DNA from: Spirochaetia bacterium
Lineage (GTDB): Bacteria; Spirochaetota; Spirochaetia; UBA9216
Length of the DNA stretch: 64,000 nt
Assembly (NCBI GenBank): GCA_963675665.1
Contig: OY776510.1
Span: 4,256,001-4,320,000, forward strand
Reading direction: 5' to 3'
Positions 41,219-63,993 of the stretch are shown here, in pieces (positions within the stretch are counted from its first letter, which is position 1; each line of letters starts with the position of its first letter). The notes beneath the pieces were generated by a model. It had not been told where the DNA came from. It saw nothing but the letters and a program-made list of their open reading frames with translations, and did no database searches. Both the position numbers and the translations under genes were made by a program.

Positions 41219-42179
41219 CAGGCAGTTTCCCTCCAACGGAAACCGGATCAAGTTCAAGAAGCATACTGAGGAAGTCCTCAACATCTGCTCTTGAATCAGC
41301 TGCAGAGATGAACTGAATACCGCTTACCGGTATTGCAGGTTTTGCTGCGACAGCAGTCATGATTCCGATTTCTTCAATTGCGGCCGATGCCTCATCAGGA
41401 TTCGAGACTACCCAGTTAATGGAAGCTTCAAGCGCAGATACAATTTCTGCAGCAGCTTCAGGCCTGGCCTCTATCAGTCTTTCACTCAGCACAAACACAG
41501 TAAAGGGAAATGGTTTCTGCGTTCCGCGAATTTTCATCAGTTCCTGCTGAGGGTCAAGTACTATACCTGCTTTTGTATTCGTTTCAGCCATCAGGGCAAA
41601 CGGCTGCGGAATAAAAGCTGTATCCGCCTTGCCGGCGGCAAGCAGCTGAACAATCTGGGGCGGAGTAGACGTGAAATTCAGCGTCACATCTTTTTCAGGA
41701 TCCAGACCGTTTTCGATAAGCAGGTATCTAAGCAGGTAATCAGGAGTAGCTCCCTTTCCGGTAAGATATATTGTCTTGCCCTTCAGTTCAGGCCAGTCGG
41801 TTACCGAAGAATCTGAAGACAGCATATACAGGGACCCGACCCCGCTGACTGCCGCCAGTTTGTACCCTATCCCTTTTGTATAAAGCTTTGCCGCGGTGTT
41901 TACAGGTAAGAATGCGGCATCAATCTCACCGCTGGTCATTTTGGTAACGGCATCAAGCGGCGAACCCAGCAGAATGTATTCAGCGTTTACATTATAACCC
42001 GGCTGAAATTTGTCTTTCATCATTTCAGCTGCGGCAAAACCGGAAGGGCCTTTCAGCGCTGCGATTGTAATATTCACCTCAGCCGGCGCTGCTGCTTCCT
42101 GTGAACCTCCGGCAATCATGCCGAAACATGCAATGGTAAAAAGAACTGTTGTCAGTAAAATAATTTTACCTCTTTTCAT
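41193..42179 (-). CDS. NitT/TauT (NMT1/THI5-like) ABC substrate-binding protein
   Basis: Spirochaetal signal (AGGSQE), LKGPSG, GKGATPD, PQPF. Confidence 0.85.
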   Translation of the reverse strand: MKRGKIILLTTVLFTIACFGMIAGGSQEAAAPAEVNITIAALKGPSGFAAAEMMKDKFQPGYNVNAEYILLGSPLDAVTKMTSGEIDAAFLPVNTAAKLYTKGIGYKLAAVSGVGSLYMLSSDSSVTDWPELKGKTIYLTGKGATPDYLLRYLLIENGLDPEKDVTLNFTSTPPQIVQLLAAGKADTAFIPQPFALMAETNTKAGIVLDPQQELMKIRGTQKPFPFTVFVLSERLIEARPEAAAEIVSALEASINWVVSNPDEASAAIEEIGIMTAVAAKPAIPVSGIQFISAADSRADVEDFLSMLLELDPVSVGGKLPDEGFYFEN

Positions 42180-48885: not shown

Positions 48886-49128
48886 CTAATAATCAATGCC
48901 GGCAGCCTGTACATTATCGGGATCAAAAGCGTGACAGGGAACAACTCCGTAAACCATATTGCAATGCGGACATTTATCTTCGAACGTTGACATTTCAAAT
49001 TCTTTTCCGCATTCGATACATTTGATTTCAAAGGGAACCGGCATCATTTGCTCTGCGAAGCCCATCATCCTTACTTTATCTACCGTTTGTGTTCCGTTTT
49101 CAAAAACTCCGCTGCATCCTTCATGCAT
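48886..49128 (-). CDS. Small Cys-rich (zinc-ribbon/rubredoxin-like) protein
   Basis: CIEC...CPHC plus MHEGC and PCH; start overlaps the upstream stop. Confidence 0.75.
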   Translation of the reverse strand: MHEGCSGVFENGTQTVDKVRMMGFAEQMMPVPFEIKCIECGKEFEMSTFEDKCPHCNMVYGVVPCHAFDPDNVQAAGIDY

Positions 49129-50158
49129 AATTTTCTCCTGATGTTTCGATTTTATCGAGAATTTCGCCCTTTCTGAGCTTTTTACGATATGACAGAAGGG
49201 TTTTATCCATCTCTTCAAGTGTAGTTAAAATCTCTCTTTCTTTATCTGTTGTTTTAATGATTTTATGGATACCGCCGTTTTTTATAACAATTCGCTTGTC
49301 GCCCATTAAGGCAAGAATGGGATCATGTGTTGCCATGAGAACAACCTTGTCCTCGGCAATCAGAAGATCAAGAGCCTGTTTACGGTCAATTCCTGCATTT
49401 TCAATTTCATCAATCAATATAATCGGCGATTTGCTCAGGATTGCAGTATCAGCGATCATCAGCGCCCGCGACTGGCCTCCGCTAAGGCTTGTAATCGGCG
49501 TATCCGGAGAGAATCTTTCTCCGGCAAGCAAATTAGCGTTTTCTATTATCCTTCCGATCACTTCGCTCCTGTTTGACACAAGACGGCTCTCGGCATGAAG
49601 CTCAACAAATTCGTACACAGACAAATCCATCACAAAGTTCATGTTCTGGGAAATCTGGGCAACAAGTTTATCTGATGTTGAAAACCGCCACTTGTTATCA
49701 GGTTTGTCATTATTGATCAGAATACTGCGCGATGTCGGCGTATCGTTCTGGGCTACCCATTCTATATCTCCAAGCAGCCTGCTTTTACCCGAGCCGGTAG
49801 GACCTACAATACAGATAATTTCACCCTGTCTTATTTCAAACCTATCAAAATTCTCCTTATTACCGGATTTGTCGGTCCCGGGAAGAATTGTAACAGATTG
49901 AACAACATCTTCATGATTTCCAAGAAACACATTCATTTGATTGACATATTCAGCTATCTGCCTGAAATGAAGTTCAATATCTATAGCATTATCTTCAATT
50001 TCATTTTCATCAAAAGCTGCAAAATATTCTTCGAGAGTAAGATGATCCTTGTTTCTGATGTCCAGGTTGTTATCATTAAAATAAGTTAAAATGAAAGGGT
50101 AATCCGCCAGCAGTTTCTCAATCTTTCCGAAACGCACATCCTGGTTACTTAATCTCAT
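49121..50158 (-). CDS. ABC-type ATPase with N-terminal extension
   Basis: GPTGSGKS, LSGGQSR, IDEIEN, ATHD. Confidence 0.85.
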   Translation of the reverse strand: MRLSNQDVRFGKIEKLLADYPFILTYFNDNNLDIRNKDHLTLEEYFAAFDENEIEDNAIDIELHFRQIAEYVNQMNVFLGNHEDVVQSVTILPGTDKSGNKENFDRFEIRQGEIICIVGPTGSGKSRLLGDIEWVAQNDTPTSRSILINNDKPDNKWRFSTSDKLVAQISQNMNFVMDLSVYEFVELHAESRLVSNRSEVIGRIIENANLLAGERFSPDTPITSLSGGQSRALMIADTAILSKSPIILIDEIENAGIDRKQALDLLIAEDKVVLMATHDPILALMGDKRIVIKNGGIHKIIKTTDKEREILTTLEEMDKTLLSYRKKLRKGEILDKIETSGENYA

Positions 50159-50167
50159 AATAATCCC

Positions 50168-50860
50168 CTATTCATCCATCTTTATTTTACGGATATTACC
50201 GGCCTGATAATCTTCACCTATTCTGGTTTCACCCAGGCAATAGGAACAAAGGGCCGACGGCATTGGAAATCTCAGCTCTTTTCCGGTGAGCGTTTTCAAG
50301 TCTTCTTTTTCATCATAGAGAAGAGTTGAAAGTTCAAAACTGCCCTGTCCTGTCAGCCCGTTTATGTTCATAATCGTTGCGCCCGGGTTTACCGTATTTA
50401 CACGGGAAGCAAAAACCTCCCGCTCGGCCTGTGAAACAATATCGCCTTTTGTGATAACGACTATATCAGCAGATTTAAGCATTGGACCGATTTTCTTGGG
50501 GGTGTTTATTCCGCTCAGATTATCAATTATACAAACTGCCATAATTCCTTTTATGTAGGGAGAACAGCGGTTGCATAAACCCGCTGATTCGCTGATTAAA
50601 ATATCGAATTTATTCTCCACTCCCCATTTGGTAACTTCCTCGATATTGCTGATAAAATAATGATCCGGGCATAATGCGCCGGAAAGCCCTTTCTTAACAG
50701 GTATTCCGGCTTTTTCATACAGAATGTCGTCATCCGTATAGAGACAATCGAATTTGGCAACTGCCGTTTTCAAACCTCTTTTGTTCAGAGATTCGATGGT
50801 TTTAAGAATAACAGAAGTCTTTCCTGATGAGGGCGGACCCGAAATTGTAATCAGATTCAT
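50168..50860 (-). CDS. HypB/UreG/CobW-like metal-binding GTPase
   Basis: GPPSSGKT, CPDH, ESAGLCNRC, TKGD, CSYC. Confidence 0.85.
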   Translation of the reverse strand: MNLITISGPPSSGKTSVILKTIESLNKRGLKTAVAKFDCLYTDDDILYEKAGIPVKKGLSGALCPDHYFISNIEEVTKWGVENKFDILISESAGLCNRCSPYIKGIMAVCIIDNLSGINTPKKIGPMLKSADIVVITKGDIVSQAEREVFASRVNTVNPGATIMNINGLTGQGSFELSTLLYDEKEDLKTLTGKELRFPMPSALCSYCLGETRIGEDYQAGNIRKIKMDE

Positions 50861-50863
50861 TGG

Positions 50864-52099
50864 TTAAACCCCAGCCATTACAGATTTGTTAAAAACAGAC
50901 TCACAATGTTTTATCAAAGCGCTTATATCGTTACTGTAGATGTAATCCCATCCAAGCCACATAAACCCGTTTTCATCAGGAAGCCTGTTATCAATTGCCG
51001 GGTTTGTACTAGGGAAAAGCCCGTTATGAGAAAGGATACGACCGACTTCCTCCGATGCAAAGAAATCAATTACCGGCTGAAGTTTCCTGCTTTTTTCTTT
51101 TTTAGACAGCATAAAGATCGGACTGATAATTGCACCGTCTTTTGGCCATACAGCTTTCATGGGCCCGCCGTCTTTCACCATCTTTGTAAAGAAATTAGGC
51201 ATTATCGTAACAATCGGACGGTTCTCTTTCTTTCGATCGCTCCTGACCATCTGGGACGGATGAAGTGATTCCAGCAGGTTGCGCCCCAGTTTTGCAACAC
51301 CTTCATCTCCGTACATTTTATGAATATTCAGAAGGATACCGTTGAATAAATCAAAATCGCCGACAGGAAGAGAAACCCTGTTATTAAAAACCGGATCCAG
51401 AATATCTTCCCAGCTTTGAGGAACAGGCAAATCGCCCAGTTCCTTCATATTTACCAGAAAGACAGCCGGCACAACTCCGATTACGGAATAATGTTTTTCG
51501 GGATCCTTCAATCCGCCATCTTTGAACGACGAGTTGATTCCGGTAAATTTGACAGTATCCGCAAACACTCCCTGTTTTTTAAAACGGCCTATCAGATTTT
51601 TATCAAAAAACATATCAAATCCGGCTGATATAAAAAGATCCGGCAGCTCTGTGGCGTCATTTATCCCTTTTATATTATCTTCAACCCAGGAAAGACCCAT
51701 GGAAGCAGCTTTCAGTTCATGTTCTATAGTTACATCATTTTCCAGGGAATAAGATTTTATAAATCTGTTGAAACCTTCCAGCAGAGGAATACGAACCGGG
51801 CAAGGCAGCAGCCCGACGACCTTCAGGGCTTCTGCTCCTGCTGCTTTTTTATTGGCGGAAAGTGTTTCATCAACAGAATTATTCCCGGATTCGATTGCTG
51901 CAATTAAAAGTCCGGCAAAGCTGTCGTAATCCAGTTGTTTCAGTATTAAAGAGGTCCTGAGTGAAATTGTCTTTCCGAATTCTTCCCGCTTTTTTTCATC
52001 TCCCATATGGTTGAATCCATTGGAAGTAAATACAGGAATGGTTTCAGGGTATTTTTCGGCAATCTCAAAAAGTGTGCTGTCTTTTTCAAAATAATTCAT
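50864..52099 (-). CDS. Substrate-binding-protein-like protein with N-terminal DUF1858-like domain, no signal peptide
   Basis: EKYPETIPVF N-domain; LPCPVRIP; PQSWEDIL, WPKDGAIISP (PotD/AfuA-like SBP motifs). Confidence 0.8.
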   Translation of the reverse strand: MNYFEKDSTLFEIAEKYPETIPVFTSNGFNHMGDEKKREEFGKTISLRTSLILKQLDYDSFAGLLIAAIESGNNSVDETLSANKKAAGAEALKVVGLLPCPVRIPLLEGFNRFIKSYSLENDVTIEHELKAASMGLSWVEDNIKGINDATELPDLFISAGFDMFFDKNLIGRFKKQGVFADTVKFTGINSSFKDGGLKDPEKHYSVIGVVPAVFLVNMKELGDLPVPQSWEDILDPVFNNRVSLPVGDFDLFNGILLNIHKMYGDEGVAKLGRNLLESLHPSQMVRSDRKKENRPIVTIMPNFFTKMVKDGGPMKAVWPKDGAIISPIFMLSKKEKSRKLQPVIDFFASEEVGRILSHNGLFPSTNPAIDNRLPDENGFMWLGWDYIYSNDISALIKHCESVFNKSVMAGV

Positions 52100-52117
52100 T
52101 AAGAACTCCGAAAATTG

Positions 52118-52459
52118 TTAATCAAGTATCTTTGTCTGCGAAACCGGTTTGGGAAGCTTCATAACAAGCACCCTTACATCTTCATCTGTTTCATTATAAA
52201 TACAGTGAACAATATCTTTGGGACTTTCTATTACATCATCTTTTTTGACTGTCAGTTTTTCATCGCCGACAAGTATGGCAGGAGTTCCTTCCAGCACATA
52301 AAAAGCGACATCGACCGGTGTAATGTGCGGTTTCAAACCTTCGCCGGCTTTTAATAACAGATGCATTATCAGGGCATGCTCTTTATCATATATTTTTGTA
52401 GATGAAACCCCATGAGGGTTCCCGGAAATCTCTTTGTCTGCATAATTGGTTATATTCAC
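52118..52459 (-). CDS. Cupin-domain protein
   Basis: LKPHITP, FYVLEG, PKDIVH. Confidence 0.85.
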   Translation of the reverse strand: MNITNYADKEISGNPHGVSSTKIYDKEHALIMHLLLKAGEGLKPHITPVDVAFYVLEGTPAILVGDEKLTVKKDDVIESPKDIVHCIYNETDEDVRVLVMKLPKPVSQTKILD

Positions 52460-52495
52460 CTGATTCTCCTTTGCATGTGTCTATTACCTGTATTT

Positions 52496-52894
52496 TTATC
52501 TGAAATCAGATAATTTGATCTTTTTGAACGTATTATATGTATCATTGGAAATTCTGTTTAATTCATTACTGAAAATACATTTTTCAAAAGCACAATGCGG
52601 TTTATTCAGAGGGCAGCTACTTAACTCTGCCTTTCCCTCCATTATTTCATATATGTCCAGAAACGAGATATTCTCAGCCGTCCTGCCAAGTCCGACACCG
52701 CCTGCCGGTCCCCTGACTGAATTAACAAGGCCGGCTCTGCTGAGCTTCTGAAATACTTTTGCAAGATGCGCCTGTGATGCATTAAGCTCTTCAGCAAGGG
52801 TTTTTACAGTCATGAGTTCCGGGTTGTTCGATGCTATTAAAACCATGCTGTGTAATGCCAGAGAAACACCCTCAGATATATTTACAAGATTCAT
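52496..52894 (-). CDS. Rrf2-family transcriptional regulator (3-Cys)
   Basis: HLAKVFQKL, SVRGPAGG, CPLNKPHCAFEKC. Confidence 0.92.
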   Translation of the reverse strand: MNLVNISEGVSLALHSMVLIASNNPELMTVKTLAEELNASQAHLAKVFQKLSRAGLVNSVRGPAGGVGLGRTAENISFLDIYEIMEGKAELSSCPLNKPHCAFEKCIFSNELNRISNDTYNTFKKIKLSDFR

Positions 52895-52903
52895 ATTCTC
52901 TCC

Positions 52904-52931
52904 ATAGGTATTATGGTACCATAATACCTAT
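52904..52931. promoter_or_regulatory. Perfect 28-bp palindrome, probable Rrf2 operator
   Basis: ATAGGTATTATGGTACCATAATACCTAT immediately upstream of the Rrf2 RBS. Confidence 0.7.
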
Positions 52932-52993
52932 TTATTAAAATACTGTCAATTCTTTCTTAACCAAAAACTATAGTTTTAGAAGTGCCCTTAATT

Positions 52994-53386
52994 TTATTCT
53001 TTTAAGCTTATATGACCACGGCCTTCACCTTTAAGCCATTCACCTTCTATTACTTGTAAATTCTCACGTATTGTTCTGACTGCAGTCTCTATCGGGATAT
53101 CATCAACCAGCACGCAAACAAATTTCTTGCGAATACGCTTGATATTCGGTCCGAAAGCAAAGGATACTGCCGTGTTAACATTTTCTTTAACAAGTATTTC
53201 CGCAATTCCCCTTGCCTTATCAGGATCGGCATGTGTTCTTTCTTCTTCTGTTGAATTTGCTATTTTATTAATTAATCGGTAATTATCCTCAGTTATCTCG
53301 CAGATTAAAAAATACTCTGCATCTCCAAAATGCCTCTTAATAAAACTTTTTCCATCATCTGTTGCAAAAGCAGCTTTTATTATCAT
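52994..53386 (-). CDS. NifB/NifX-family (FeMo-cofactor-binding domain) protein
   Basis: HFGDAEYF, FGPN motifs. Confidence 0.8.
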   Translation of the reverse strand: MIIKAAFATDDGKSFIKRHFGDAEYFLICEITEDNYRLINKIANSTEEERTHADPDKARGIAEILVKENVNTAVSFAFGPNIKRIRKKFVCVLVDDIPIETAVRTIRENLQVIEGEWLKGEGRGHISLKE

Positions 53387-53548: not shown

Positions 53549-54160
53549 GTGGATATACAGAATACTGTTTTTAATGAACTGTTCAGACAGGGAAGGCAAA
53601 TAGAACTTGCCAGGGGTGATGTACTGCACGATGTGCATGATGAATGCAAAGCACTGGGGAAAATTATCAAAGGCAAACTCAGACTTTCACGAATTTTGTC
53701 ATCCGGACGGGAAATAACTTTCAAGGAATTCATACCCGGCGAAATTTATGCGGAACTTCTTGTGTTTACCGGTGAGCCTTACCCGGGTTGGCTGATTGCA
53801 TCGGAAAACTCCACTGTTATAGAAGTTGAGTTCAGCCATGTTCTTGAACTCCTGGGCAACAGCGTCGCCTTAATTGAATTCATGTCCGGGGTTTCCAGAA
53901 AAACCAACCACCTGGCGAATAAAATAGAAATACTGTCTTTTAAAACGGTAAAACAAAAAATTGCCTTTTATCTGCTTACCGAAAACAATCCAGTTATTTC
54001 TTCAGTCTCCGGTTTATCCGATAACCTTGCCTGCTCACGCGAGGCCCTTTCCAGGGCTTTAAGTGAAATGGCGGGTAACGGAATAATCACCAGAGACGGC
54101 AAAGATATCCGAATAAAAGATAAAACAGAGCTTGAGAAACTGCTGCTGGGGCCTCTCTGA
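53549..54160 (+). CDS. Crp/Fnr-family regulator (HcpR-like)
   Basis: cNMP-binding-like domain, KIEILSFKTVKQKI, SREALSRALSEM HTH. Confidence 0.85.
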   Translation: MDIQNTVFNELFRQGRQIELARGDVLHDVHDECKALGKIIKGKLRLSRILSSGREITFKEFIPGEIYAELLVFTGEPYPGWLIASENSTVIEVEFSHVLELLGNSVALIEFMSGVSRKTNHLANKIEILSFKTVKQKIAFYLLTENNPVISSVSGLSDNLACSREALSRALSEMAGNGIITRDGKDIRIKDKTELEKLLLGPL

Positions 54161-54476: not shown

Positions 54477-55793
54477 CTACTGGCGCAACAGTCCAATCGT
54501 CATTGCATCAACAAATTCGGGTAATTCGGGTGTTGTTCGGCCTGAGACTATATTGTGATCAACAGTTGCCGACCAGTCGGCACAGAATTCCCCACCCTGG
54601 GCTTCAAATCCCGGAACACATGAAATCCAGCCGGTAGATTTTCGTCCCTCTACTATTCCGGCCGCCGCTACAGCATTCGGACCGTGACACATAAAAGAAA
54701 TAACCTTTCCGGCGTCGTTTGCCTTTCTCAGAAACTCAAGTGGGTATCCGGCTTCTATCATATTCCATGGGCAAAAAGCGCCCGGAATCATAAGTCCGTC
54801 GAAATCATCCATATTCGTATCTTTCAGGTCCTGTATTTTATAAAGGTTATCAGGAATTTCCTGAAGCGGGACGGACATTCCGAAATTACCCTGAACCACA
54901 TCAAGGCCCAATAGCGGCGGACGGGCGCGCTTGCAGCCGGTGAATGTGCCTAAAAGTATATTGGCGCCGCGGTGCATGAATTCCAGCACGGGAACGGCAA
55001 TTTCGAAATCTTCAAAATCCCAGCCGGTTATCAGCATCATCCGCTTGCCTGCCAGAATTCCCTTTCTCGGGTCCTTGTAGCCGGGAGAAAATTGCCTGCA
55101 CAGAGCACTTACAAACTCAGGAGTATCTATCGTATCCTTTGCTGTCAAAATCCGGTCATCCATAACAACCCTGGTATTTAACTTGAAGTTTGATGTCTTT
55201 TTAAGAATATAATCAACCTGCTCATTTCCGGTGCAGTCTTTTCCAATAGTGAGCCCTACGGTCAGCATCGGAATGATGCCCCCTCCTATTCCGCCGATAA
55301 CAGCACCGTTGGAGTATGCATTTTTGAGAAGATCCTGTACTTCTTTTTCGGTGCACATGATATCTCCGGAAGGTCCGCCGGGAATAATTATTGCATCATA
55401 GTCTTTATAATCAGCGTCGTATAATGATTTTGATGAATCCGCCTTCTCTCCTCCTCCTACCGGAATCGGATCAACGGTAAGGCCCCACAGCCCTACTACA
55501 CCTTTTGTACGGATGTTCGGCCGGGTCCATTTCCAGGTTACCCTGTCTACCAGCAGAAACTCCAGCTTGCCTCCGAGCTCTCCGATATATGAAGCTATAT
55601 AATAAGCCTGAAAATCGCTGAATTCAGTAGCCACAACACAGCCGATCTTCTTTCCGGCCAGGGGACCAACATCCTTGGTACATCCGCCTTTCGGCCCGGT
55701 CCACAGGGTAGCGCCGTCTTTTTGCTGTATATCTATCCCTCTTGATTTTATAACTTCTATATAATCTGCAGACGGATCATAATTATTTCCCAT
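54477..55793 (-). CDS. Tandem DJ-1/PfpI-domain protein
   Basis: Two domains (EFSDFQ..IIPGG..; FEDFE..IPGA..MCHGP); catalytic Cys only in domain 2. Confidence 0.85.
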   Translation of the reverse strand: MGNNYDPSADYIEVIKSRGIDIQQKDGATLWTGPKGGCTKDVGPLAGKKIGCVVATEFSDFQAYYIASYIGELGGKLEFLLVDRVTWKWTRPNIRTKGVVGLWGLTVDPIPVGGGEKADSSKSLYDADYKDYDAIIIPGGPSGDIMCTEKEVQDLLKNAYSNGAVIGGIGGGIIPMLTVGLTIGKDCTGNEQVDYILKKTSNFKLNTRVVMDDRILTAKDTIDTPEFVSALCRQFSPGYKDPRKGILAGKRMMLITGWDFEDFEIAVPVLEFMHRGANILLGTFTGCKRARPPLLGLDVVQGNFGMSVPLQEIPDNLYKIQDLKDTNMDDFDGLMIPGAFCPWNMIEAGYPLEFLRKANDAGKVISFMCHGPNAVAAAGIVEGRKSTGWISCVPGFEAQGGEFCADWSATVDHNIVSGRTTPELPEFVDAMTIGLLRQ

Positions 55794-55829
55794 CAAATCT
55801 TCTCCTTTGATTATCTTATAAAATAAAGC

Positions 55830-55844
55830 GCAATTATCATGCCA
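55830..55844 (-). promoter_or_regulatory. Sigma54 (-24/-12) promoter of the DJ-1/PfpI gene
   Basis: TGGCATGATAATTGC. Confidence 0.75.
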
Positions 55845-56119
55845 TTGAAAATGGATTTACAAATTTTTATAAACATGTAAAAAACAGGATACTCTAAAAA
55901 ACTGAAGCTTTCAGAGATTTATCCCGGATTTACAGAACGCTTATTTATTTCCTGATAAAGAAATAAATAAATTCCAGGGCATCTCTGACAACCCCGATTC
56001 AGGGATATCAGATATACGCGAATTATAATCATCTAAAATTTTAATATTATTTGATACACGGCAGGAGTTCCGGTTTTGTTCATTTTTTTTACATTCACGC
56101 ATTATTCTGTGTAAAAAAT

Positions 56120-57949
56120 CTACACAGGGACAGGATGCTCTTCATTTTGCGGCAGCATAATTATAAAGCGGCATCCGCCTTCAGACCTGTTCTCAACATT
56201 AATAGTCCCGCCGCTTTTGGTTATTATCGAATAGCACAATGAAAGCCCCAATCCTAGATTTCGGGAATCGGTGCTCTTTGTTGAAAAAAACGGGGTAAAA
56301 ACAGAATCCATCTTGTCAGCAGGCAACCCGGGACCATCATCCTCAATTGCAATTAATACCGAGCTTTTCCCGTCCTTTACGTTTGTCGAGGTAATAATTC
56401 TGACTTCACCGCCGTCGCCTGTTGCTTCACAGGCATTTTTAATGATATTTATTAACACCTGCCTCAGTTCATTTTTATTCATCTTCACAATAAGCGGATC
56501 TTCAAGTTTTTCAACACAAAAATTAATCTTTCCGTAAATATTATTTTTCCGGATCAGTTTAATATAGCTTTCCACCAGGCTGTTAACGTCTATTTCTCCG
56601 GCATTAATCATATTGGAATCGGAAAAGGTTACCAGGCGGGATACAATCTGTGAAATAAAATCAAGCTCTTCCTTTACATCGGCAAGAGGATCAACAAGAC
56701 TTTCATCATCGACCCGGGTACGAATATAGCGAATATAATTCATTACAATCTCAAGGGAATTATTAATCTCATGCCCCACCCCGGCGGCCAGCAAGCCTAT
56801 TGAAGAAAGATTTTCCGCCAGCATCATTTTCTTCTGCAGAGTATAATAATCCGTAACGTCCTCAATAATAATGATATGACCGACAATTGCAATTCCGTCA
56901 TATATGGGCACTATTTTCATTGTGTTCATTGAATGGTGCTCACCGATAGTAATAGGTACATCAAAAAATGAATGGCTCTCCTTTGATTCAAGGGAAGCCA
57001 TAATTAATTTATAAACTTCATTTTTCTGTTCGGCGAAAATAAAACTGATGTTCTTATACAGGTAATTCTCCCTGACTATTTCAAAATGACGTTCGAATGA
57101 TCGGTTTGCCATTATAATTTTATGACCCGGATCTATTACTGCAAGATTAATCGGAAGGGTATTTAGAATAGCCTCATTAAAACGCAGGAAATGATAAAAC
57201 TCTGACTGGAGTTCGGAAAGCTTTACCTTTTCCACAGTTTCAGTGTATGCAAGCCTGATCATGTTAACCTTGTCGATACCGTCAACCGGTCCGGAAAAAA
57301 GGACTTTCCCGTTACGCAGAATACTGACTTTATCTGCAAAATCATAAAGTTTTTCTATATCATGGGTTATAAAAACAATTGCTGTTCCCTTTCTTTTTAG
57401 CCTGTGAAAAACACCGGTAAAAATCCTTGAGAATTCCGAGCCCAGTTTAATAAAAATTTCATCGAGTACCAGAATATCCGGAGTCTTTTCAATCTGCCGG
57501 ATAAGTTCAACAGCTGTATACTCGGAAGATTTAAGCTCTTTAAGCTTCCGGTTTAAATCAATTCTGATACCGTACTTTTCCAATAATTTTTCAGCCTGTT
57601 TATAGACCCTTCCCCGCGGCAGGAAAAAACCTTTATATGCGATATCGTTATCGAATAACAGATATTCCCATACCAGAAAATTATCATTGGCGACACGATC
57701 CTGATGAACCATACAGGCTTTAATTTGCCCTTTTTTTACAATATGTCCTGATGAAGGCTTCAATACTTCGCTGATAATCTTGCCGAGCGTGGATTTACCG
57801 CAACCGTTCTCACCCAGAACCGCATGAATTTCACCGCGACGGACTATAAAAGTAAGATTTGACAGAACGTCGTTATAGTTGGTGCTGAAACTGATATTCT
57901 CAAGCCTCAGGATTTCATTTGCGGATCCGTCAGCCTTCGCTGATTCCAT
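56120..57949 (-). CDS. ABC-ATPase-domain/PAS/histidine kinase fusion
   Basis: GENGCGKST, LVLDE, FITH (sugar-ABC NBD); PAS-like segment; GHEINN, NIIKNA, DDGPG, FFST, GLGL. Confidence 0.88.
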   Translation of the reverse strand: MESAKADGSANEILRLENISFSTNYNDVLSNLTFIVRRGEIHAVLGENGCGKSTLGKIISEVLKPSSGHIVKKGQIKACMVHQDRVANDNFLVWEYLLFDNDIAYKGFFLPRGRVYKQAEKLLEKYGIRIDLNRKLKELKSSEYTAVELIRQIEKTPDILVLDEIFIKLGSEFSRIFTGVFHRLKRKGTAIVFITHDIEKLYDFADKVSILRNGKVLFSGPVDGIDKVNMIRLAYTETVEKVKLSELQSEFYHFLRFNEAILNTLPINLAVIDPGHKIIMANRSFERHFEIVRENYLYKNISFIFAEQKNEVYKLIMASLESKESHSFFDVPITIGEHHSMNTMKIVPIYDGIAIVGHIIIIEDVTDYYTLQKKMMLAENLSSIGLLAAGVGHEINNSLEIVMNYIRYIRTRVDDESLVDPLADVKEELDFISQIVSRLVTFSDSNMINAGEIDVNSLVESYIKLIRKNNIYGKINFCVEKLEDPLIVKMNKNELRQVLINIIKNACEATGDGGEVRIITSTNVKDGKSSVLIAIEDDGPGLPADKMDSVFTPFFSTKSTDSRNLGLGLSLCYSIITKSGGTINVENRSEGGCRFIIMLPQNEEHPVPV

Positions 57950-59258
57950 ACTTCTCCAGTTTGTTATAAAGTGTTTTCCGGCTCATTTTCAGAACTTCAG
58001 CCGTTTTTGTTTTATTATTGTCATTTTTCAGCAGAGTATTCAGAATCAGCTGTTTCTCCATGTCTTCCCTGATATTATCAGTTTGCTTTTCCGGAGTACT
58101 TCTGCGATGCTGCATTCCGAGCGGCAGGTCTTCGATTTTTATTTCTTCATCCGCAGCAACTGCACAAGCATACTGAATGGTGTTTTTCAGCTCCCGGATA
58201 TTTCCGGGCCATGTATATTCAAGAAAAAGATCTATCACCTCGGCAGATAATTTGCGTTTTTTAACCGTGCCTACACAATAATCGCTGATAAAATATTCGG
58301 ATAGTACAGGAATGTCCTCTTTGCGTTCCTTCAGCGGCGGCAATTTGATAACGGCAGTACTGAGCCTGTAAAAAAGGTCTTCCCGGAATTCCTTCCGTGC
58401 GATCATCTGTTCAAGGTTTTTGTTTGTTGCGGCAATGAAACGGACATCAACGGTAATCGTTTTATTACCACCTATCCGCCTTACTTCCTTGTTCTGCAGT
58501 GTTCTTAGAATCTTTGACTGAATTGCCAGCGACATATCGCCTATTTCATCCATAAACAGATTGCTGCCGTCGGCACGCTCGAATATTCCTTTATAATCTG
58601 AATTGGCCCCGGTATATGCACCTTTGTTATGACCGAAAAGTTCATTGTCAAGGATACTTTCCTGAAATGCCGCGCAGTTGATTTTTTGCAGACAGGATGT
58701 GCTTCTGGGAGAAATATCATGAATATAATCTGCCAGAACTTCTTTACCGGTTCCGTTTTCACCCAGAATAAGAATAGGCAAATCAGTAGCGGCAAGCTTT
58801 CTCGCCCTGGCCAGCGTTTTTATCAGATCCGGATTTTTTGTAATAAAATCTCCATGCTCATTACATACAGCAGTATCAACAGTATTGGTTGATTCGTTAT
58901 CGGCTATTGCCGATTCAACGACCCTCAGCAGCAGATCAAAATCAACCGGTTTTTGTATGTAATCGTAAGCTCCGATTTTTATCGTATCAACAGCGGATTC
59001 AATCGAACCGTATCCGGTAATCATTATTACCGGTATGTTTTTCTTCAGAGACATAATGTCCCGTAAAAGCCTGCGGCTGTCTTCATCACCAAGCATCAGA
59101 TCAAGCAGAATGAGATCAAAATTATTCAGTTTAACGCTTTCCAGCGCAGTTCTGCTGTCGTTTGCCCAAGAAACCTTGTACCCCAGCTGTTCGAAGTTTA
59201 CAGCCAGACTCTTGCATACCTTAACCTTGTCGTCAATTATGAAAATATTCCTGACCAT
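57930..59258 (-). CDS. Sigma54-dependent response regulator (NtrC family)
   Basis: Receiver (IIDD, LDL, KP), GENGTGKE, GAYTGA, FREDLFYRL, Fis HTH. Confidence 0.95.
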   Translation of the reverse strand: MVRNIFIIDDKVKVCKSLAVNFEQLGYKVSWANDSRTALESVKLNNFDLILLDLMLGDEDSRRLLRDIMSLKKNIPVIMITGYGSIESAVDTIKIGAYDYIQKPVDFDLLLRVVESAIADNESTNTVDTAVCNEHGDFITKNPDLIKTLARARKLAATDLPILILGENGTGKEVLADYIHDISPRSTSCLQKINCAAFQESILDNELFGHNKGAYTGANSDYKGIFERADGSNLFMDEIGDMSLAIQSKILRTLQNKEVRRIGGNKTITVDVRFIAATNKNLEQMIARKEFREDLFYRLSTAVIKLPPLKERKEDIPVLSEYFISDYCVGTVKKRKLSAEVIDLFLEYTWPGNIRELKNTIQYACAVAADEEIKIEDLPLGMQHRRSTPEKQTDNIREDMEKQLILNTLLKNDNNKTKTAEVLKMSRKTLYNKLEKYGISEG

Positions 59259-59416
59259 AATGTTACGTAATTATACAAACCTTCCTTTTAAACCGTATAA
59301 AATGGTGACACTGAATTATCAGGTTTAAACCCATATCTGTCAAGCAGGTATAATAAAACGACTTATCTCATTACAACACAATAATTTATATTTACACGTT
59401 TCGGCCGATAGCTCTT

Positions 59417-59431
59417 TGGCACGTCGATTGC
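59417..59431 (+). promoter_or_regulatory. Sigma54 (-24/-12) promoter of the ADH-ADH-GRE operon
   Basis: TGGCACGTCGATTGC. Confidence 0.8.
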
Positions 59432-59472
59432 TTGTGTATTTTTGGTATAATAAATTAAATCGGAGGCTGATT

Positions 59473-60510
59473 TTGATTCCTGAAACAATGAAGGCTGGCG
59501 TGATGACGGAGCCTGGTAAAATAACTGTTCAAGAAGTAAAAACTCCTGAAATCGGAGATAATGATGTATTAATAAAGGTCAGGTACTGCGGTATCTGCGG
59601 AACCGACGTGCATATATTCAACGGCGTATACAGCAGAGATAAACTGCCGCTTATCCCCGGGCATGAATTTGTCGGAGAAATTGCCGCAATGGGAAAAAAC
59701 GTTACCAGGTATAAAATCGGCGACACAGTTACTGCCGATATAAATCTCAGCTGCGGATCATGCATCTACTGCCTTCAGAATAAACCGCTTTTATGCAGCG
59801 AGATGAGTCAGGTGGGAATTCATCAGAACGGCGCCTTTGCAGAATATGTCGCATTTCCGGCGGAGAGCGTTGTAGAACTGAATCCGGATACACCTAAAGA
59901 AAAACTTGCACTCATAGAGCCTGTATCATGCTGCGTAAGAACATTCCGGATGGCGGAGATATCTTTCGCAAAAAGCGTTGCAATAATAGGCGGCGGAAGC
60001 ATGGGCCTTCTTCTTTTACAAATGGCAAAGCTTGTCGGAGCCGCTCCGGTCATCATGGTGGCCCGCCGACAGGAAACCCTTGACCTTGCAGTTGAAATGG
60101 GCGCCGACGACACCGTGCTTATCGGCAATGGAGATACCGACAGGCTGAAAGAACTTACCGGAGGCCAGGGAGCTGATTTTGTTATCGAAGCAGTCGGCAG
60201 AAAAGAAACCTATGAGAAAGCATGTGAGATGCTGGGACCCGGCGGAAGGCTGGTTGCGTTCGGGATAATGGAACAGGGTGAAAAAACGCCGTTTGAGTTT
60301 TTTAACACTGTTTTGCTGGAACAAAGCTTAACCGGCTCATGCGCCGGAATGGGAATCGACTTTCATGAAGCAAAAAGGCTTGTTGAGTACGATCGTTTCG
60401 ACCTGGGCAGGTACAGCAACAATATTGTCCCGCTTGAGCGGATTGCCGACGGTTTCAACATGGCGATAAACGATAAAACGGTTTTGAAAGTAATCATTGA
60501 TATGGGATGA
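59473..60510 (+). CDS. Zn-dependent (MDR) polyol/sugar-alcohol dehydrogenase
   Basis: CGTD, GHEF, CxxCxxC...C, GGGSMG; GGAGG RBS before TTG 59473 (ATG 59488 alternative). Confidence 0.9.
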   Translation: MIPETMKAGVMTEPGKITVQEVKTPEIGDNDVLIKVRYCGICGTDVHIFNGVYSRDKLPLIPGHEFVGEIAAMGKNVTRYKIGDTVTADINLSCGSCIYCLQNKPLLCSEMSQVGIHQNGAFAEYVAFPAESVVELNPDTPKEKLALIEPVSCCVRTFRMAEISFAKSVAIIGGGSMGLLLLQMAKLVGAAPVIMVARRQETLDLAVEMGADDTVLIGNGDTDRLKELTGGQGADFVIEAVGRKETYEKACEMLGPGGRLVAFGIMEQGEKTPFEFFNTVLLEQSLTGSCAGMGIDFHEAKRLVEYDRFDLGRYSNNIVPLERIADGFNMAINDKTVLKVIIDMG

Positions 60511-60546
60511 TCCCTTAAAGTCAATCAGGATACAGGAGATAAAAAC

Positions 60547-61566
60547 TTGAAAGCATTGGTATGGACCGGCGCGGATCAGTCGGCAATTAGAGAAATTGAC
60601 AAACCTGAAATAAAAGAGGATGAAGTTCTGCTTAAGGTAAAGGCAACCGGCGTATGCGGAACCGATCTTACAATATTCAAGGGATATTTTCCCGCCCACA
60701 GGGCTGTTGCTCCCATGGCGCTCGGCCATGAAATGAGCGGGGTAATAGCCGAAAAAGGAAATGCCGTAACAGGCTATGAAGTCGGAGACAGGGTTATTGC
60801 CGATCCGCTGATTTCATGCGGGACCTGTTATAATTGCGTTAAGGGGCTCAGGCACATATGCAAAACGCTTGCCCTGTTCGGGGTGGACAGCGACGGATCC
60901 TTCGCTGAATATGTAAAGGTAAAAGCAGAAAAACTGTACCGGATACCCGATACGCTGTCATTTGAGAAAGCCGCGCTTTTTGAACCGCTCGCTGTCGCCG
61001 TACACGCAGTCAGGCGCTCAAAACTTGCAACCGGGGATACGGTAATGGTAATCGGCGGCGGGCCAATCGGAATTCTTATTGCAATGGTAGCCGAAACTGC
61101 CGGTGCCAGAACAATCATCGTATCCGAGATCCAGCAGTCGCGTCTGAATCTTCTTAATGAATACGGATTTAAAACAATCAATCCTGCAAAAATTGACAAT
61201 GAATCAATTATCAATAATTATTATGAAGGAGCAGGCCCGGAAGTTGTATTTGAAGTAACCGGAACAGCAGGCGGTTTTCAGGCGGCTATTGATATTGCCT
61301 GTTACAGGGGCCGCATCATGGAAGTCGGAGTGCCCAAAGGCGAGCAGACAATGGATATCCGGAAAGGCAACTTCGGTGAACTTGAAATTTTAGGTTCGCG
61401 TGTTTACGAACCGGTTGATATCAAAACAGCACTTAAAATAATTGATGATGCCCGTTATGACTGGGACAAACTGATCACAACATTTCCGCTGGAAAAGGGA
61501 CCGGAAGTTCTTACCGAACTTGCAAGCGGTAAAACATCATTAATGAAAGCAATCTTCACGTTGTAG
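60547..61566 (+). CDS. Zn-dependent (MDR) polyol/sugar-alcohol dehydrogenase
   Basis: CGTD, GHEM, CxxCxxC...C, GGGPIG. Confidence 0.9.
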   Translation: MKALVWTGADQSAIREIDKPEIKEDEVLLKVKATGVCGTDLTIFKGYFPAHRAVAPMALGHEMSGVIAEKGNAVTGYEVGDRVIADPLISCGTCYNCVKGLRHICKTLALFGVDSDGSFAEYVKVKAEKLYRIPDTLSFEKAALFEPLAVAVHAVRRSKLATGDTVMVIGGGPIGILIAMVAETAGARTIIVSEIQQSRLNLLNEYGFKTINPAKIDNESIINNYYEGAGPEVVFEVTGTAGGFQAAIDIACYRGRIMEVGVPKGEQTMDIRKGNFGELEILGSRVYEPVDIKTALKIIDDARYDWDKLITTFPLEKGPEVLTELASGKTSLMKAIFTL

Positions 61567-61581
61567 TAGGAGGAATGATAA

Positions 61582-63993
61582 ATGGCGATAGAAGTAAGAT
61601 TAACCGATTCAGATGCAGCTAAAGCAGTCAAATGGCGCACTTCAAAGCTTAATGAAGAAGTACTGGCTGTCGAACCTGAAATCTGCATAGAACGGGCAAG
61701 GCTTGTTACCGAATCATATAAAAAAACCGAAACCGAACCGATGATAATCCGCAGGGCAAAAGCGCTGGCAAACGTTCTTGAAAATCAGACGATATTCATT
61801 CATAAAGATCAGCTTATTGCCGGTGTACAGGCAAGTAAACTCCGTTCATCTCCGCTTTTCCCTGAAACCGAAGCAAACTACCTGAAAAAGGAAATCGATC
61901 TCTTTGAAAAAAGGGAACAGGACAGACTGATTGTTCCGGCCGACGTAAGAAAAGAACTTCTGGAAGAAATTCTTCCGTACTGGAAAGGCAAATGTATAGA
62001 TGAGATTGCACTCGCTGCAATGCCCGAAAAGACCCGCGAGATTGCAATGCTCGAGAACCAGATTTTCTCGGTTGGAATACACCTTACCGGTTCAATCGGC
62101 CATATAATAGCCGATTACGACAGGGTAATTGCAAGAGGTTTTCTCGGCATCAGGGAAGACGCTGAAAATTATCTCAAAACCGTTGACTTTTCAGATCCTG
62201 AAAATACATCAAAGCTTCATTTCTATAAGGCTATCATAATCGTGTGCGATGCAGTGATGGCCTGGGGCAAACGGTATGCTGTTCTTGCGCGGGAAGAAGC
62301 AATAAAAGAAACGGATGAACGTTGGAAAAAAGAACTTGATACAATGGCCGACATCTGCGAACGTGTTCCGGCCCTTCCGGCCAGAAATTTCCGCGAAGCC
62401 GTGCAGGCTTTCTGGTTCTCACATCTGCTTTGTTATATTGAGCAGAACGGACTTGCTGTTTCGGTAGGGCGTTTTGATCAGTTTATGTACCCTTATTACA
62501 GGCAGGACATTGATAACGGCGCCATCACCAAAGATGAAGCCCAGGAGCTGTTGGAATGCCTGTGGATTAAATTCACCGAGGTTATGAGAGCATACGATTT
62601 TGAATGTGCAAAATATTATGCCGGATTTTCAATCTCCGAAAACCTTGTTCTGGGCGGAGTTACCCCGGACGGAAAAGATGCGACCAACGAACTTTCCTAC
62701 ATGTGTCTCGACGCAGAATCCCACACAAGCCTTTCGCAACCTAATCTCGCAGTTCGTGTTCACAACAATATGCCGGAGGATTTCTTCCGCAAAGCAGTCA
62801 GGCTTGCATCAACAGGCCGGACAAAACCCGAGTTTTTCAACGATTCAGTTGCGCTTCAGTCGCTGCTGTCGCTCGGTGTCCCTTTAAAAGATGCCCGCGA
62901 CTATTCTATTTCCGGATGTGTGGAAGCAGTTCCGCCGCATACAAACGGAATGACAAACGCAGCAATGTCGAATATTGCAAAGGCGCTTGAGCTTGCTCTT
63001 AACGACGGGGTATGCAGACTTACCGGAAAGCAGATAGGACCGAAAACCGGCGACCCGCGGGAGTTTAAATCCATTCGCGAGTTGCTTGATGCATTCAAAA
63101 ACCAGGTTGCCGCATATGTAAAAGAGATGGTGACCGCGCTTCAGTTTATCGAAAAAACCCATGCTCAATATTATCCGCTGCCATACTTCTCGCTGATTAT
63201 GGACGACTGTCTTGAACTGGGCCTGGATATAACCGAAGGCGGCGCCCGATATAATTATACAGGTCCGCAGGCGGTAGGTCTGTCGGATGTTGCTGATTCG
63301 CTGGCGGCCATAGGAAAATTCGTCTTTGACGACAAGAGCATTTCAATGGATCAGCTTCTTAAAGCTCTTAACGACAATTTTGAAGGAAGCGAAGAACTCC
63401 GCCAGCGTCTTTCGAACAAAGCGCCGAAATACGGCAACGACGATGATTACGTCGATTCACTCGCCGCTGAAGTTGTAAAAATCTACTGCGAAGAAGTTGA
63501 ACAGTATAAAAACACCCGCGGCGGCGTTTACCGTCCGGGCGTATATTCGGTATCTGCAAATGTTCCGCTGGGAATGCATGTCGGTGCAACACCGAACGGC
63601 CGGTTCAGCCGGGCGGCGCTCGGAGACGGCGTAGGACCCGTTCAGGCCTGCGATATAATGGGCCCCACCGCGGTTACCCGCTCCGTTGCAAAACTAAATC
63701 ATGAACTGGTAACAAACGGGACCCTTCTGAACCAGAAATTCAGCCGGGATCTAATGAACTCAGACGAAGGCAAACAGGGACTGGGCGATCTAATCCGAAG
63801 TTACTTTGATCTCGGCGGATGGCATATCCAGTTCAATGTAGTCGACGCAAAAGTATTGCGTGAAGCGCAGACCAAACCGCAGGACCACAAAGACCTTATT
63901 ATCAGGGTTGCCGGATACAGCGCTTTCTTTGTTGAACTCGACAGCAAGGTACAGGATGACATCATTAACAGAACTGAACAAAAGAAATTCTAA
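61582..63993 (+). CDS. Glycyl radical enzyme (PFL2/eliminase-type, substrate unknown)
   Basis: GRFDQ, single-Cys loop SGCVE, glycyl motif RVAGYSA, 803 aa. Confidence 0.92.
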   Translation: MAIEVRLTDSDAAKAVKWRTSKLNEEVLAVEPEICIERARLVTESYKKTETEPMIIRRAKALANVLENQTIFIHKDQLIAGVQASKLRSSPLFPETEANYLKKEIDLFEKREQDRLIVPADVRKELLEEILPYWKGKCIDEIALAAMPEKTREIAMLENQIFSVGIHLTGSIGHIIADYDRVIARGFLGIREDAENYLKTVDFSDPENTSKLHFYKAIIIVCDAVMAWGKRYAVLAREEAIKETDERWKKELDTMADICERVPALPARNFREAVQAFWFSHLLCYIEQNGLAVSVGRFDQFMYPYYRQDIDNGAITKDEAQELLECLWIKFTEVMRAYDFECAKYYAGFSISENLVLGGVTPDGKDATNELSYMCLDAESHTSLSQPNLAVRVHNNMPEDFFRKAVRLASTGRTKPEFFNDSVALQSLLSLGVPLKDARDYSISGCVEAVPPHTNGMTNAAMSNIAKALELALNDGVCRLTGKQIGPKTGDPREFKSIRELLDAFKNQVAAYVKEMVTALQFIEKTHAQYYPLPYFSLIMDDCLELGLDITEGGARYNYTGPQAVGLSDVADSLAAIGKFVFDDKSISMDQLLKALNDNFEGSEELRQRLSNKAPKYGNDDDYVDSLAAEVVKIYCEEVEQYKNTRGGVYRPGVYSVSANVPLGMHVGATPNGRFSRAALGDGVGPVQACDIMGPTAVTRSVAKLNHELVTNGTLLNQKFSRDLMNSDEGKQGLGDLIRSYFDLGGWHIQFNVVDAKVLREAQTKPQDHKDLIIRVAGYSAFFVELDSKVQDDIINRTEQKKF

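Follow-up and report, generated by a model that had tools for sequence, protein, structure and literature searches.

What would a cytoplasmic sensor kinase gain from carrying, in its own chain, the ATPase domain of a sugar importer? The question is raised by a gene close to the end of the window analysed here, a stretch of 64,000 nucleotides from a Spirochaetia bacterium (contig OY776510.1, positions 4,256,001 to 4,320,000; coordinates below are those of the window). The open reading frame (ORF) at 56120..57949 on the minus strand (hereafter the query) starts with ATG and codes for a histidine kinase of 609 aa, in which a nucleotide-binding domain (NBD) of the ATP-binding cassette (ABC) type precedes a PAS-kinase module. 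We found that it belongs to a large, uncharacterised kinase family with an ABC NBD as input, and that this input is, judging from its sequence, a single copy of NBD1, the first of the two NBDs of CUT2 (RbsA/MglA-type) sugar ABC ATPases. The gene and its parts are as follows.

56120..57949, minus strand: gene for a soluble NBD-PAS-HisKA-HATPase_c sensor kinase, 609 aa (ORF, Pfam, NCBIfam, AlphaFold2 model)
57245..57928, minus strand: NBD of the NBD1-of-CUT2 type, residues 8-235 (motifs, alignments, tree, AlphaFold2 model)
57179..57244, minus strand: linker from NBD to PAS, residues 236-257, low confidence (pLDDT, the per-residue confidence of the model, <50 at 237-257)
56855..57178, minus strand: PAS domain, residues 258-365 (Pfam, AlphaFold2 model, Foldseek)
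56615..56854, minus strand: DHp/HisKA helices, residues 366-445, with phospho-acceptor H393 (Pfam, alignments, AlphaFold2 model)
56141..56614, minus strand: catalytic HATPase_c domain, residues 446-603, with invariant N501, N505, D537, G539 and G541 (Pfam, alignment)

An earlier note, made from the sequence alone, had described an NBD, a PAS segment and a HisKA/HATPase joined in one ORF without a transmembrane helix, and this architecture is borne out by Pfam, NCBIfam, the AlphaFold2 model and hydropathy. Among Pfam models, ABC_tran matches residues 29-164 (6e-17, 62.9 bits against a cut-off of 25), several PAS models match residues 258-367 (about 1e-4, at or near their cut-offs), and HATPase_c matches residues 492-602 (2e-23, 83 bits against a cut-off of 26.4); the HisKA match at residues 386-444 is weak (18.8 bits against a cut-off of 26.9), and the paralogues exceed that cut-off. 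In NCBIfam, residues 1-246 best match the N-terminal halves of sugar ABC ATPases (YtfR at 1e-32, LsrA, AlsA and MglA), and residues 247-604 best match AtoS (8e-61), all of these lying far under the equivalog cut-offs (113 against 850 bits for YtfR, 206 against 646 for AtoS). The AlphaFold2 model (pLDDT 79.6) has a confident NBD at residues 8-235 and a disordered linker at 237-257, followed by the PAS domain (258-365), the DHp helices (366-441) and the catalytic (CA) domain (450-601). Foldseek relates the C-terminal part to PAS-kinases (YF1, VicK, ThkA, NifL) and the N-terminal part to ABC NBDs, and it returned no single solved chain that combines an ABC NBD with a PAS-kinase. No transmembrane helix was detected in the kinase, the highest 19-residue Kyte-Doolittle mean being 1.78 at residue 344, a peak that falls in the PAS beta-strands of the model. 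The phospho-acceptor H393 in the H-box is invariant in two alignments of the family (32/32 and 52/52 sequences), as are N501, N505, D537, G539, G541, G566 and G568 of the N, G1 and G2 boxes in the family alignment. With an H-box histidine, a GHKL domain and a cognate regulator, the protein has the sequence features of a class I (HisKA) histidine kinase.

The fusion is no artefact of this assembly, given a gap-free independent contig and the same architecture in orthologues, paralogues and a wider family. The earlier note had itself held that uniqueness to one assembly, through a frameshift or a chimera, would tell against it. The fusion recurs in a contig of run X3, which comes from another study under another organism label and covers 55700-59500 with 17 substitutions and 0 gaps; we take this contig as evidence of presence only, and the contig of run X1 is identical and may be the source itself. 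Orthologues at 65-74% identity occur in 3 congeneric genomes, and the genome of origin (5.15 Mb, one contig) holds 8 full-length paralogues, the query counted, at 28-38% identity to the query. Together with the large co-linear family, these data exclude, for all practical purposes, a chimeric or frameshifted origin of the ORF.

The search by domain architecture that the earlier note had called for recovers the full-length arrangement in 33 clusters at 90% identity, and a profile search over 1.84 billion representatives recovers at least 150 clusters at 50% identity; all 150 listed score 8e-127 or better, and among the matches listed most are about 600 aa long and aligned end to end. In a sample of 401 genomes of the phylum, with 3 candidates scored per genome, 21 genomes match at E <= 1e-40, and in 13 of them, the genome of origin included, the match covers approximately residues 10-600; within the order, matches occur in 8 of the 11 genomes. 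Where source names are present they read Spirochaeta, Spirochaetales, Spirochaetia or candidate division KSB3, and the products are named 'histidine kinase', 'hypothetical protein' or 'ATP-binding cassette domain-containing protein'. The query fits the definition of the family in being co-linear over about 600 aa, in having the motif IDKINLIxLAYTQ at the tail of its NBD, and in having a sigma-54 regulator upstream. No description of a fusion between an ABC NBD and a histidine kinase was found in the full-text literature, subscription-only papers lying outside that search; PMC2853384, as far as its excerpt goes, tabulates Pfam counts.

Where, then, does the NBD come from? All the motifs listed in the earlier note are present: Walker A GENGCGKST (residues 46-54, including K52), a Q-loop (Q83), Walker B ILVLDE (residues 159-164, with D163 and E164, given as LVLDE in that note), an H-loop (H196), a degenerate signature (LKSSE at 139-143, aligned under the LSGGQ of a solved NBD) and a degenerate D-loop (EIFIKLG where EPTSxLD is expected). 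The family-specific motif at the C-terminal end of the NBD, IDKVNMIRLAYTE, is present as well. The query has the Walker A, Q-loop, Walker B and H-loop of an ABC ATPase and lacks the LSGGQ and D-loop needed for an ATP-sandwich dimer. Nor does it have the form of a CUT2 ATPase, a tandem of NBD1 and NBD2 of about 500 aa with LSGGNQQ in NBD2, as its single NBD1-like domain is followed by PAS and kinase. When 33 kinase NBDs were aligned with both halves of 30 neighbouring CUT2 ATPases, the key positions compared as follows.

Walker A Lys: genuine NBD1 30/30; NBD2 replaced, by R in 25/30; kinase NBD 32/33
Q-loop Gln: genuine NBD1 30/30; NBD2 no Gln; kinase NBD 30/33
Walker B Asp: genuine NBD1 30/30; NBD2 D 29/30; kinase NBD 33/33
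Catalytic Glu: genuine NBD1 30/30; NBD2 E 22/30, D 8/30; kinase NBD 30/33
H-loop His: genuine NBD1 30/30; NBD2 Ser 30/30; kinase NBD 18/33, so lost in 15/33
Signature: genuine NBD1 variable and non-canonical (LSVGKQQ, LSISNQQ and others); NBD2 LSGGNQQ 30/30; kinase NBD degenerate

The degenerate signature, which the earlier note had read as the mark of a pseudo-ATPase, loses that meaning here: genuine NBD1s already lack LSGGQ, and the kinases have inherited its absence from them. On this alignment, the features that the kinases themselves have given up with respect to NBD1 are the DEPT D-loop and, in many members, the H-loop His. Across 52 family sequences reaching down to about 26% identity, G46, G51 and D163 are invariant (52/52), K52 is kept in 51/52, E164 in 48/52, the Q-loop Gln in 44/52 and H196 in 36/52; a canonical signature is found in 0/52 (position 2 is S in 11/52 and position 4 is G in 2/52), and 1/52 retains the Asp of the D-loop. 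Such a pattern suggests that the kinase NBD binds nucleotide and that hydrolysis is dispensable across the family. In a tree from a quick IQ-TREE search, with support from the Shimodaira-Hasegawa-like approximate likelihood ratio test (SH-aLRT), all 33 kinase NBDs cluster together (100), next to the NBD1s and away from the NBD2s (100). The query stands on a long branch (1.02) within the kinase group, near paralogues p3 (L088) and p5 (L090). This topology fits one ancient fusion to a PAS-kinase, and not repeated capture from each adjoining ATPase.

The genomic neighbourhoods of the family likewise show a link with CUT2 importers. A sigma-54 regulator lies directly upstream of the kinase at 8/8 loci of the genome of origin and at 18/19, 9/9 and 6/6 other loci with upstream context. 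An operon for a CUT2-type sugar ABC importer, consisting of a Peripla_BP_4 binding protein, a tandem ABC ATPase of about 500 aa and a BPD_transp_2 permease, adjoins 7 of the 8 paralogues in the genome of origin, all except the query (hence 7/7 of the others); it is usually divergent from the regulator and is followed by sugar or polyol catabolic genes. In other genomes, whose ORFs were labelled by BLAST against the Pfam-annotated genes of the genome of origin, the operon is adjacent at 17/19 loci of a first set (exceptions L129 and L002) and at 6/6 further loci not of the query type (L158 is too short), and in metagenomes at 5/5 informative loci (L161 and L164 are too short), which makes 35/37 informative loci outside the query branch. 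At L002 the contig ends after the kinase, and the sole importer gene codes for a binding protein 3 kb away. Scans of genome contigs and metagenome contigs with H-box or generic NBD patterns gave family members at 3/80 and 7/80 loci, and the rest were left out. By BLAST labelling, the genome of origin has 71 tandem CUT2 ATPases, 90 BPD_transp_2 permeases and at least 45 Peripla_BP_4 binding proteins, yet no more than 15% of its length is as close as 6 kb to the start of a CUT2 ATPase gene. It also codes for 17 NtrC-type sigma-54 regulators, 8 of which are paired with NBD-kinases.

In the window, the kinase gene is accompanied by a regulator and by two flanking candidate targets, each with its own promoter box.

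57930..59258, minus strand: cognate response regulator with REC, Sigma54_activat (AAA+, GAYTGA loop) and HTH_8 domains, overlapping the kinase start by 20 nt (ORF, Pfam, NCBIfam)
59417..59432, plus strand: near-consensus sigma-54 -24/-12 box TGGCACGTCGATTGCT ahead of the first zinc-dependent alcohol dehydrogenase gene, whose likely ATG (59489) follows after about 57 nt (pattern scan)
59416..63993, plus strand: divergent putative target operon of two zinc-dependent alcohol dehydrogenases (59416-60510 and 60547-61566) and a glycyl radical enzyme (61582-63993), with the activase just past the window end
55829..55844, minus strand: sigma-54 -24/-12-like box TGGCATGATAATTGCG, about 33 nt upstream of the start of the DJ-1/PfpI gene (pattern scan)
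54477..55796, minus strand: downstream putative target with two DJ-1/PfpI domains, 439 aa, syntenic in orthologous loci

The overlap with an NtrC-type activator is as the earlier note had it, and this regulator matches ZraR, AtoC and NtrC at about 1e-110 in NCBIfam. Over the whole window a loose sigma-54 pattern is found 3 times against 2.25 expected, with no excess over chance, and the argument from the two boxes therefore rests on their position and orientation. Boxes like these are also found ahead of the adjacent operons at 6/7 other loci of the genome of origin (none at L087), or 7/8 with the window, and rpoN is present in the genome. Kinase and regulator form a sigma-54 two-component system that most likely switches on both flanking sigma-54 promoters. 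The orthologous loci L150 and L151, and the short locus L138, keep the same order, with the double DJ-1/PfpI gene, kinase and regulator facing, on the opposite strand, the two alcohol dehydrogenases, the glycyl radical enzyme and the activase.

The glycyl radical enzyme of the putative target operon belongs to the PFL2/glycerol-dehydratase subfamily (TIGR01774, above cut-off) and reaches no NCBIfam equivalog; the best match is HpfG, the DHPS (2,3-dihydroxypropane-1-sulfonate) dehydratase, with 721 bits where the cut-off is 1000. The genome of origin codes for 8 PFL2/glycerol-dehydratase-type glycyl radical enzymes and 8 activases, and several of them adjoin CUT2 sugar ABC operons; the other seven enzymes lie at 166323, 175161, 392416, 1971426, 2043348, 2052864 and 5048478 of the genome sequence (G000). 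At the locus of p3 (L088), the CUT2 operon ends in a glycyl radical enzyme and an activase.

How far, then, is the NBD of these kinases shaped by a partner? Compared with genuine NBD1s, the kinase NBDs show weaker conservation near Walker A, the signature helix and the D-loop, and stronger conservation in the tail IDKINLIxLAYTQ, which runs into PAS. When identity within and between groups is compared (orthologue versus paralogue groups), the highest ratios are those of the linker (3.08), the NBD helical subdomain (2.79) and PAS (2.36). In five matched groups, identity of the kinase helical subdomain is 0.65 within orthologues, against 0.64 for the nucleotide-binding core, and falls to 0.21 between groups, making it the most divergent part; its ratio is 3.05 in the kinases against 2.23 in the neighbouring genuine NBD1s. 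The helical subdomain of an ABC NBD is the part that touches the membrane domain, and the pattern fits a lineage-specific partner surface, without proving one. A PDB sequence search with a CUT2 permease gave 0 matches at E <= 0.001, so that there is no experimental template on which interface residues could be mapped. As for the query branch, K, Q, D, E and H are kept in 9/9 sequences and the NBD is conserved like the CA domain of the same proteins (0.57-0.71 against 0.59), so that a complete ATP site is kept there under purifying selection.

We favour, with moderate confidence, a composite explanation in which a sigma-54 two-component system has a copy of NBD1 as its input and engagement of an importer as its ancestral mode. 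An NBD1 copy of a CUT2 ATPase would have been fused once, long ago, to a PAS-kinase. In what is most likely the ancestral mode, the two NBDs of a kinase dimer would engage the adjacent importer, probably by contacting the coupling helices of the permease through the Q-loop and the helical subdomain, and the substrate-dependent conformation of the importer would be relayed to the DHp helices by way of the conserved NBD tail and PAS. The query branch, which keeps a complete ATP site, would have lost the adjacent importer, and its NBD may either read an importer encoded elsewhere or act as a free ATP-dependent switch, with PAS sensing a cytoplasmic metabolite. The mechanism proposed in the earlier note, docking on a carbohydrate ABC permease as a pseudo-ATPase subunit that converts transport events into phosphorylation, is in our view plausible, if unproven, for the family and less likely for the query gene.

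A more explicit arrangement, which we put forward tentatively, is a covalent transporter-sensor design with a dedicated receptor complex: in the dimeric soluble kinase, both NBD1 copies, which would not hydrolyse ATP, would sit on a CUT2 permease dimer at its coupling helices, displacing the real ATPase, and binding of a sugar-loaded periplasmic binding protein would lead directly to His phosphorylation and sigma-54 transcription, the NBD of the query branch having been freed or re-targeted to glycyl-radical-enzyme metabolism.

Several observations weigh against importer engagement. No permease, substrate-binding protein or CUT2 ATPase lies beside the query or its orthologues, and the link to carbohydrate importers proposed in the earlier note, which stands for the family (35/37 loci), fails for the query gene itself (0/3 loci of its branch). 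That note had suggested looking just beyond the 64 kb as well, and there (L094, G000:4319001-4332000) we found the activase, then an amidohydrolase, a REC-adenylate/guanylate cyclase, CheA and CheR, with no permease or substrate-binding protein among them; the nearest CUT2 ATPase is 48 kb from the query. At L129 (G143:C31, 7661-16129), the genes next to the regulator-kinase pair, on its downstream side, code for a LacI-type regulator, an FGGY kinase, a class II aldolase/epimerase and an L-arabinose isomerase (araB-araD-araA), with no transporter within about 9 kb of the pair; a neighbouring importer is not required, since here a family member is paired with an araBDA-type operon. Moreover, CUT2 adjacency would also be expected from a plain layout of regulator next to target, and the locus counts overstate the number of independent events, because related loci (for instance L133/L134 and L154/L155) are not independent. 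Each adjacent importer has its own full tandem ATPase, and the kinase NBD must therefore compete with it or bind elsewhere, with no obviously free docking site. The loop GGNEEAARLSGINV, the presumed coupling-helix loop of the permease, is highly conserved and nearly identical among paralogous permeases; if this assignment holds, it leaves little basis for specificity among the 71 CUT2 systems. Finally, evolution in every subdomain has been quicker in the kinase NBDs than in genuine NBD1s, and in the query branch about 15 residues have been deleted ahead of the Q-loop strand, with LVWEYL replacing the VAENLF of the groove region.

Some of these points are what would be expected if the NBD were an autonomous cytoplasmic gate or clamp for ATP/ADP or another nucleotide, with no transporter contact, while PAS senses a metabolite and the CUT2 context reflects origin and regulon. 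For the family as a whole we regard this as possible, on the doubtful side, and for the query gene it may well be the better description. It accounts for an NBD that is still intact in the query branch and at L129 despite the missing importer, for binding residues that are invariant where hydrolysis residues are dispensable, for complete ATPases owned by the adjacent importers, and for PAS and linker being among the most paralogue-specific parts (2.36 and 3.08); other clusters with ABC_tran and HisKA, some with GAF, in Actinomycetota may point the same way, as leads only at a score of 0.82. It leaves unexplained, however, why an NBD1-type Q-loop (Q in 44/52) and the VAENLF region have been kept, and why the helical subdomain, although it takes no part in binding nucleotide, is so similar among orthologues and yet lineage-specific. 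Nor would generic energy sensing need 8 diverged copies per genome.

The distribution of motifs between the two halves of CUT2 ATPases would allow for another partner. The kinase NBD has canonical Walker A and B and no signature, and NBD2 alone has a canonical signature (30/30) together with a degenerate Walker A (K to R in 25/30); an NBD1-like domain and NBD2 would make a natural complementary pair, because the Walker site lies in one and the signature in the other. The partner of the kinase NBD could then be an NBD2, either that of a CUT2 ATPase or one resembling it in a free protein, whose LSGGNQQ would complete the ATP site, and the kinase would report occupancy or turnover of the ATPase. 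We consider this unlikely, as the NBD2 of a transporter is covalently bound to its own NBD1, the kinases have a degenerate D-loop (canonical D in 1/52) although this loop contributes to the NBD-NBD interface, and the loci examined showed no gene for an NBD2 on its own. That the NBD is vestigial or merely structural, with PAS doing all the sensing, is less probable still: loss of the H-loop His in 15/33, degenerate signature and D-loop and faster evolution than genuine NBD1s would suit it, but the Walker A Gly and Lys and the Walker B Asp are invariant or nearly so in 52 sequences down to about 26% identity, a new conserved motif arose at the NBD tail, and the domain has been kept in at least 150 clusters at 50% identity.

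Other observations concern the family and the window at large. A protein atlas contains further ABC_tran+HisKA clusters of about 515, 826 and 852 aa, some with GAF and the longer ones mostly from Actinomycetota (leads only, score 0.82), and P0158, of 851 aa, is a relative of the kinase family matched in two stretches; fusions of NBD and kinase may have a wider spread, or more than one origin. Two loci hold probable decayed copies. At L137 (G281:C3, 9749-14434) the kinase frame is shortened by an in-frame TGA and the adjoining CUT2 ATPase is in two ORFs, and at L038 (2646-4453) the kinase is broken into two ORFs.

In the window, positions 39685-42179 on the minus strand code for a NitT/TauT-type ABC system (NMT1-like binding protein, BPD_transp_1 permease and single-NBD ATPase), and at L150 and L151 a comparable single-NBD ATPase is encoded at a distance of 6-9 kb from the orthologous kinase; this system, in loose synteny, may be the transporter that serves the glycyl-radical pathway. 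With HpfG as the best equivalog match of the glycyl radical enzyme, it raises the possibility of a link to sulfonates. Between it and the DJ-1/PfpI gene, positions 49121-53386 on the minus strand code for an ABC ATPase, a CobW-like GTPase, a DUF1858+SBP_bac_6 protein, a cupin, an Rrf2 regulator and a Nitro_FeMo-Co (NifX/NifB-like) protein, and positions 53549-54160 on the plus strand for a Crp-type regulator.

In this family, which comprises at least 150 clusters at 50% identity and reaches 8 copies in a single genome, the ATPase domain of a transporter is built into the kinase itself. If the NBD does read an importer, it would give a cytoplasmic kinase a simple route from extracellular sugar to gene expression, and would offer a ready module for sensor engineering; if it does not, the family would represent an ABC NBD reused as a nucleotide-binding regulatory domain. 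The co-occurrence in one genome of a query branch without a transporter and of paralogues adjacent to one amounts to a built-in comparison that could separate the two possibilities.

Among known systems, the NBD is closest to the NBD1 of CUT2 ATPases (RbsA, MglA, YtfR, LsrA, AlsA), among which are its best NCBIfam matches; in the tree the kinase NBDs stand beside the NBD1s of adjacent CUT2 ATPases, with which they share the pattern of canonical Walker A, Q-loop, Walker B and H-loop motifs and a degenerate signature. The kinases differ from these ATPases in having one NBD in place of an NBD1-NBD2 tandem, in having lost the D-loop (DEPT...), with an H-loop that is often dispensable, and in their new tail motif IDKINLIxLAYTQ running into the PAS-kinase. 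The remainder of the protein resembles PAS kinases of the AtoS/NtrB/ZraS type that act with NtrC-family activators, with the same PAS-HisKA-HATPase_c core and a REC-AAA+-HTH_8 partner; unlike them, the query has no membrane anchor or periplasmic domain, and its N-terminal input is an ABC NBD.

As for coupling to transporters, BceS with BceAB, and PhoR with PhoU and PstSCAB, are cases in which a kinase without a ligand-binding sensor of its own is encoded beside an ABC transporter that is regulated and is thought to be read by it. The intramembrane kinase BceS makes contact with a permease of the FtsX type, PhoR needs PhoU, and in both systems kinase and transporter are separate proteins, whereas in the query family the NBD is covalently part of a soluble kinase and the neighbouring transporters are CUT2 importers. 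The query also lacks the two transmembrane helices expected of a Bce-type module, and the neighbours of the family are CUT2 systems with BPD_transp_2 permeases, not BceAB. In MalK-MalT, and in ChvE-VirA and XylFII-LytS, an importer ATPase or a substrate-binding protein binds a separate regulator and thereby controls the transcription of sugar genes; these differ from the query family in that none of them is known to have an NBD fused to the kinase. We know of no described case of co-sensing with an ABC transporter, of the Bce type or the Pst-PhoU-PhoR type, in which the kinase and the transporter parts are not separate. In KdpD, according to PMC11018627, an N-terminal Walker-type nucleotide-binding domain functionally couples a histidine kinase to the transporter that it controls, KdpFABC, and this domain is not an ABC NBD but a serine kinase acting on the pump. 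The query family shares with KdpD, as portrayed there, a kinase with an N-terminal nucleotide-binding domain, and differs from it in that KdpD is membrane-bound and its domain is of another kind. Two-component sensing coupled to a part of an ABC transporter is known in kind, and what is new in this family is that the NBD is covalently part of the kinase.

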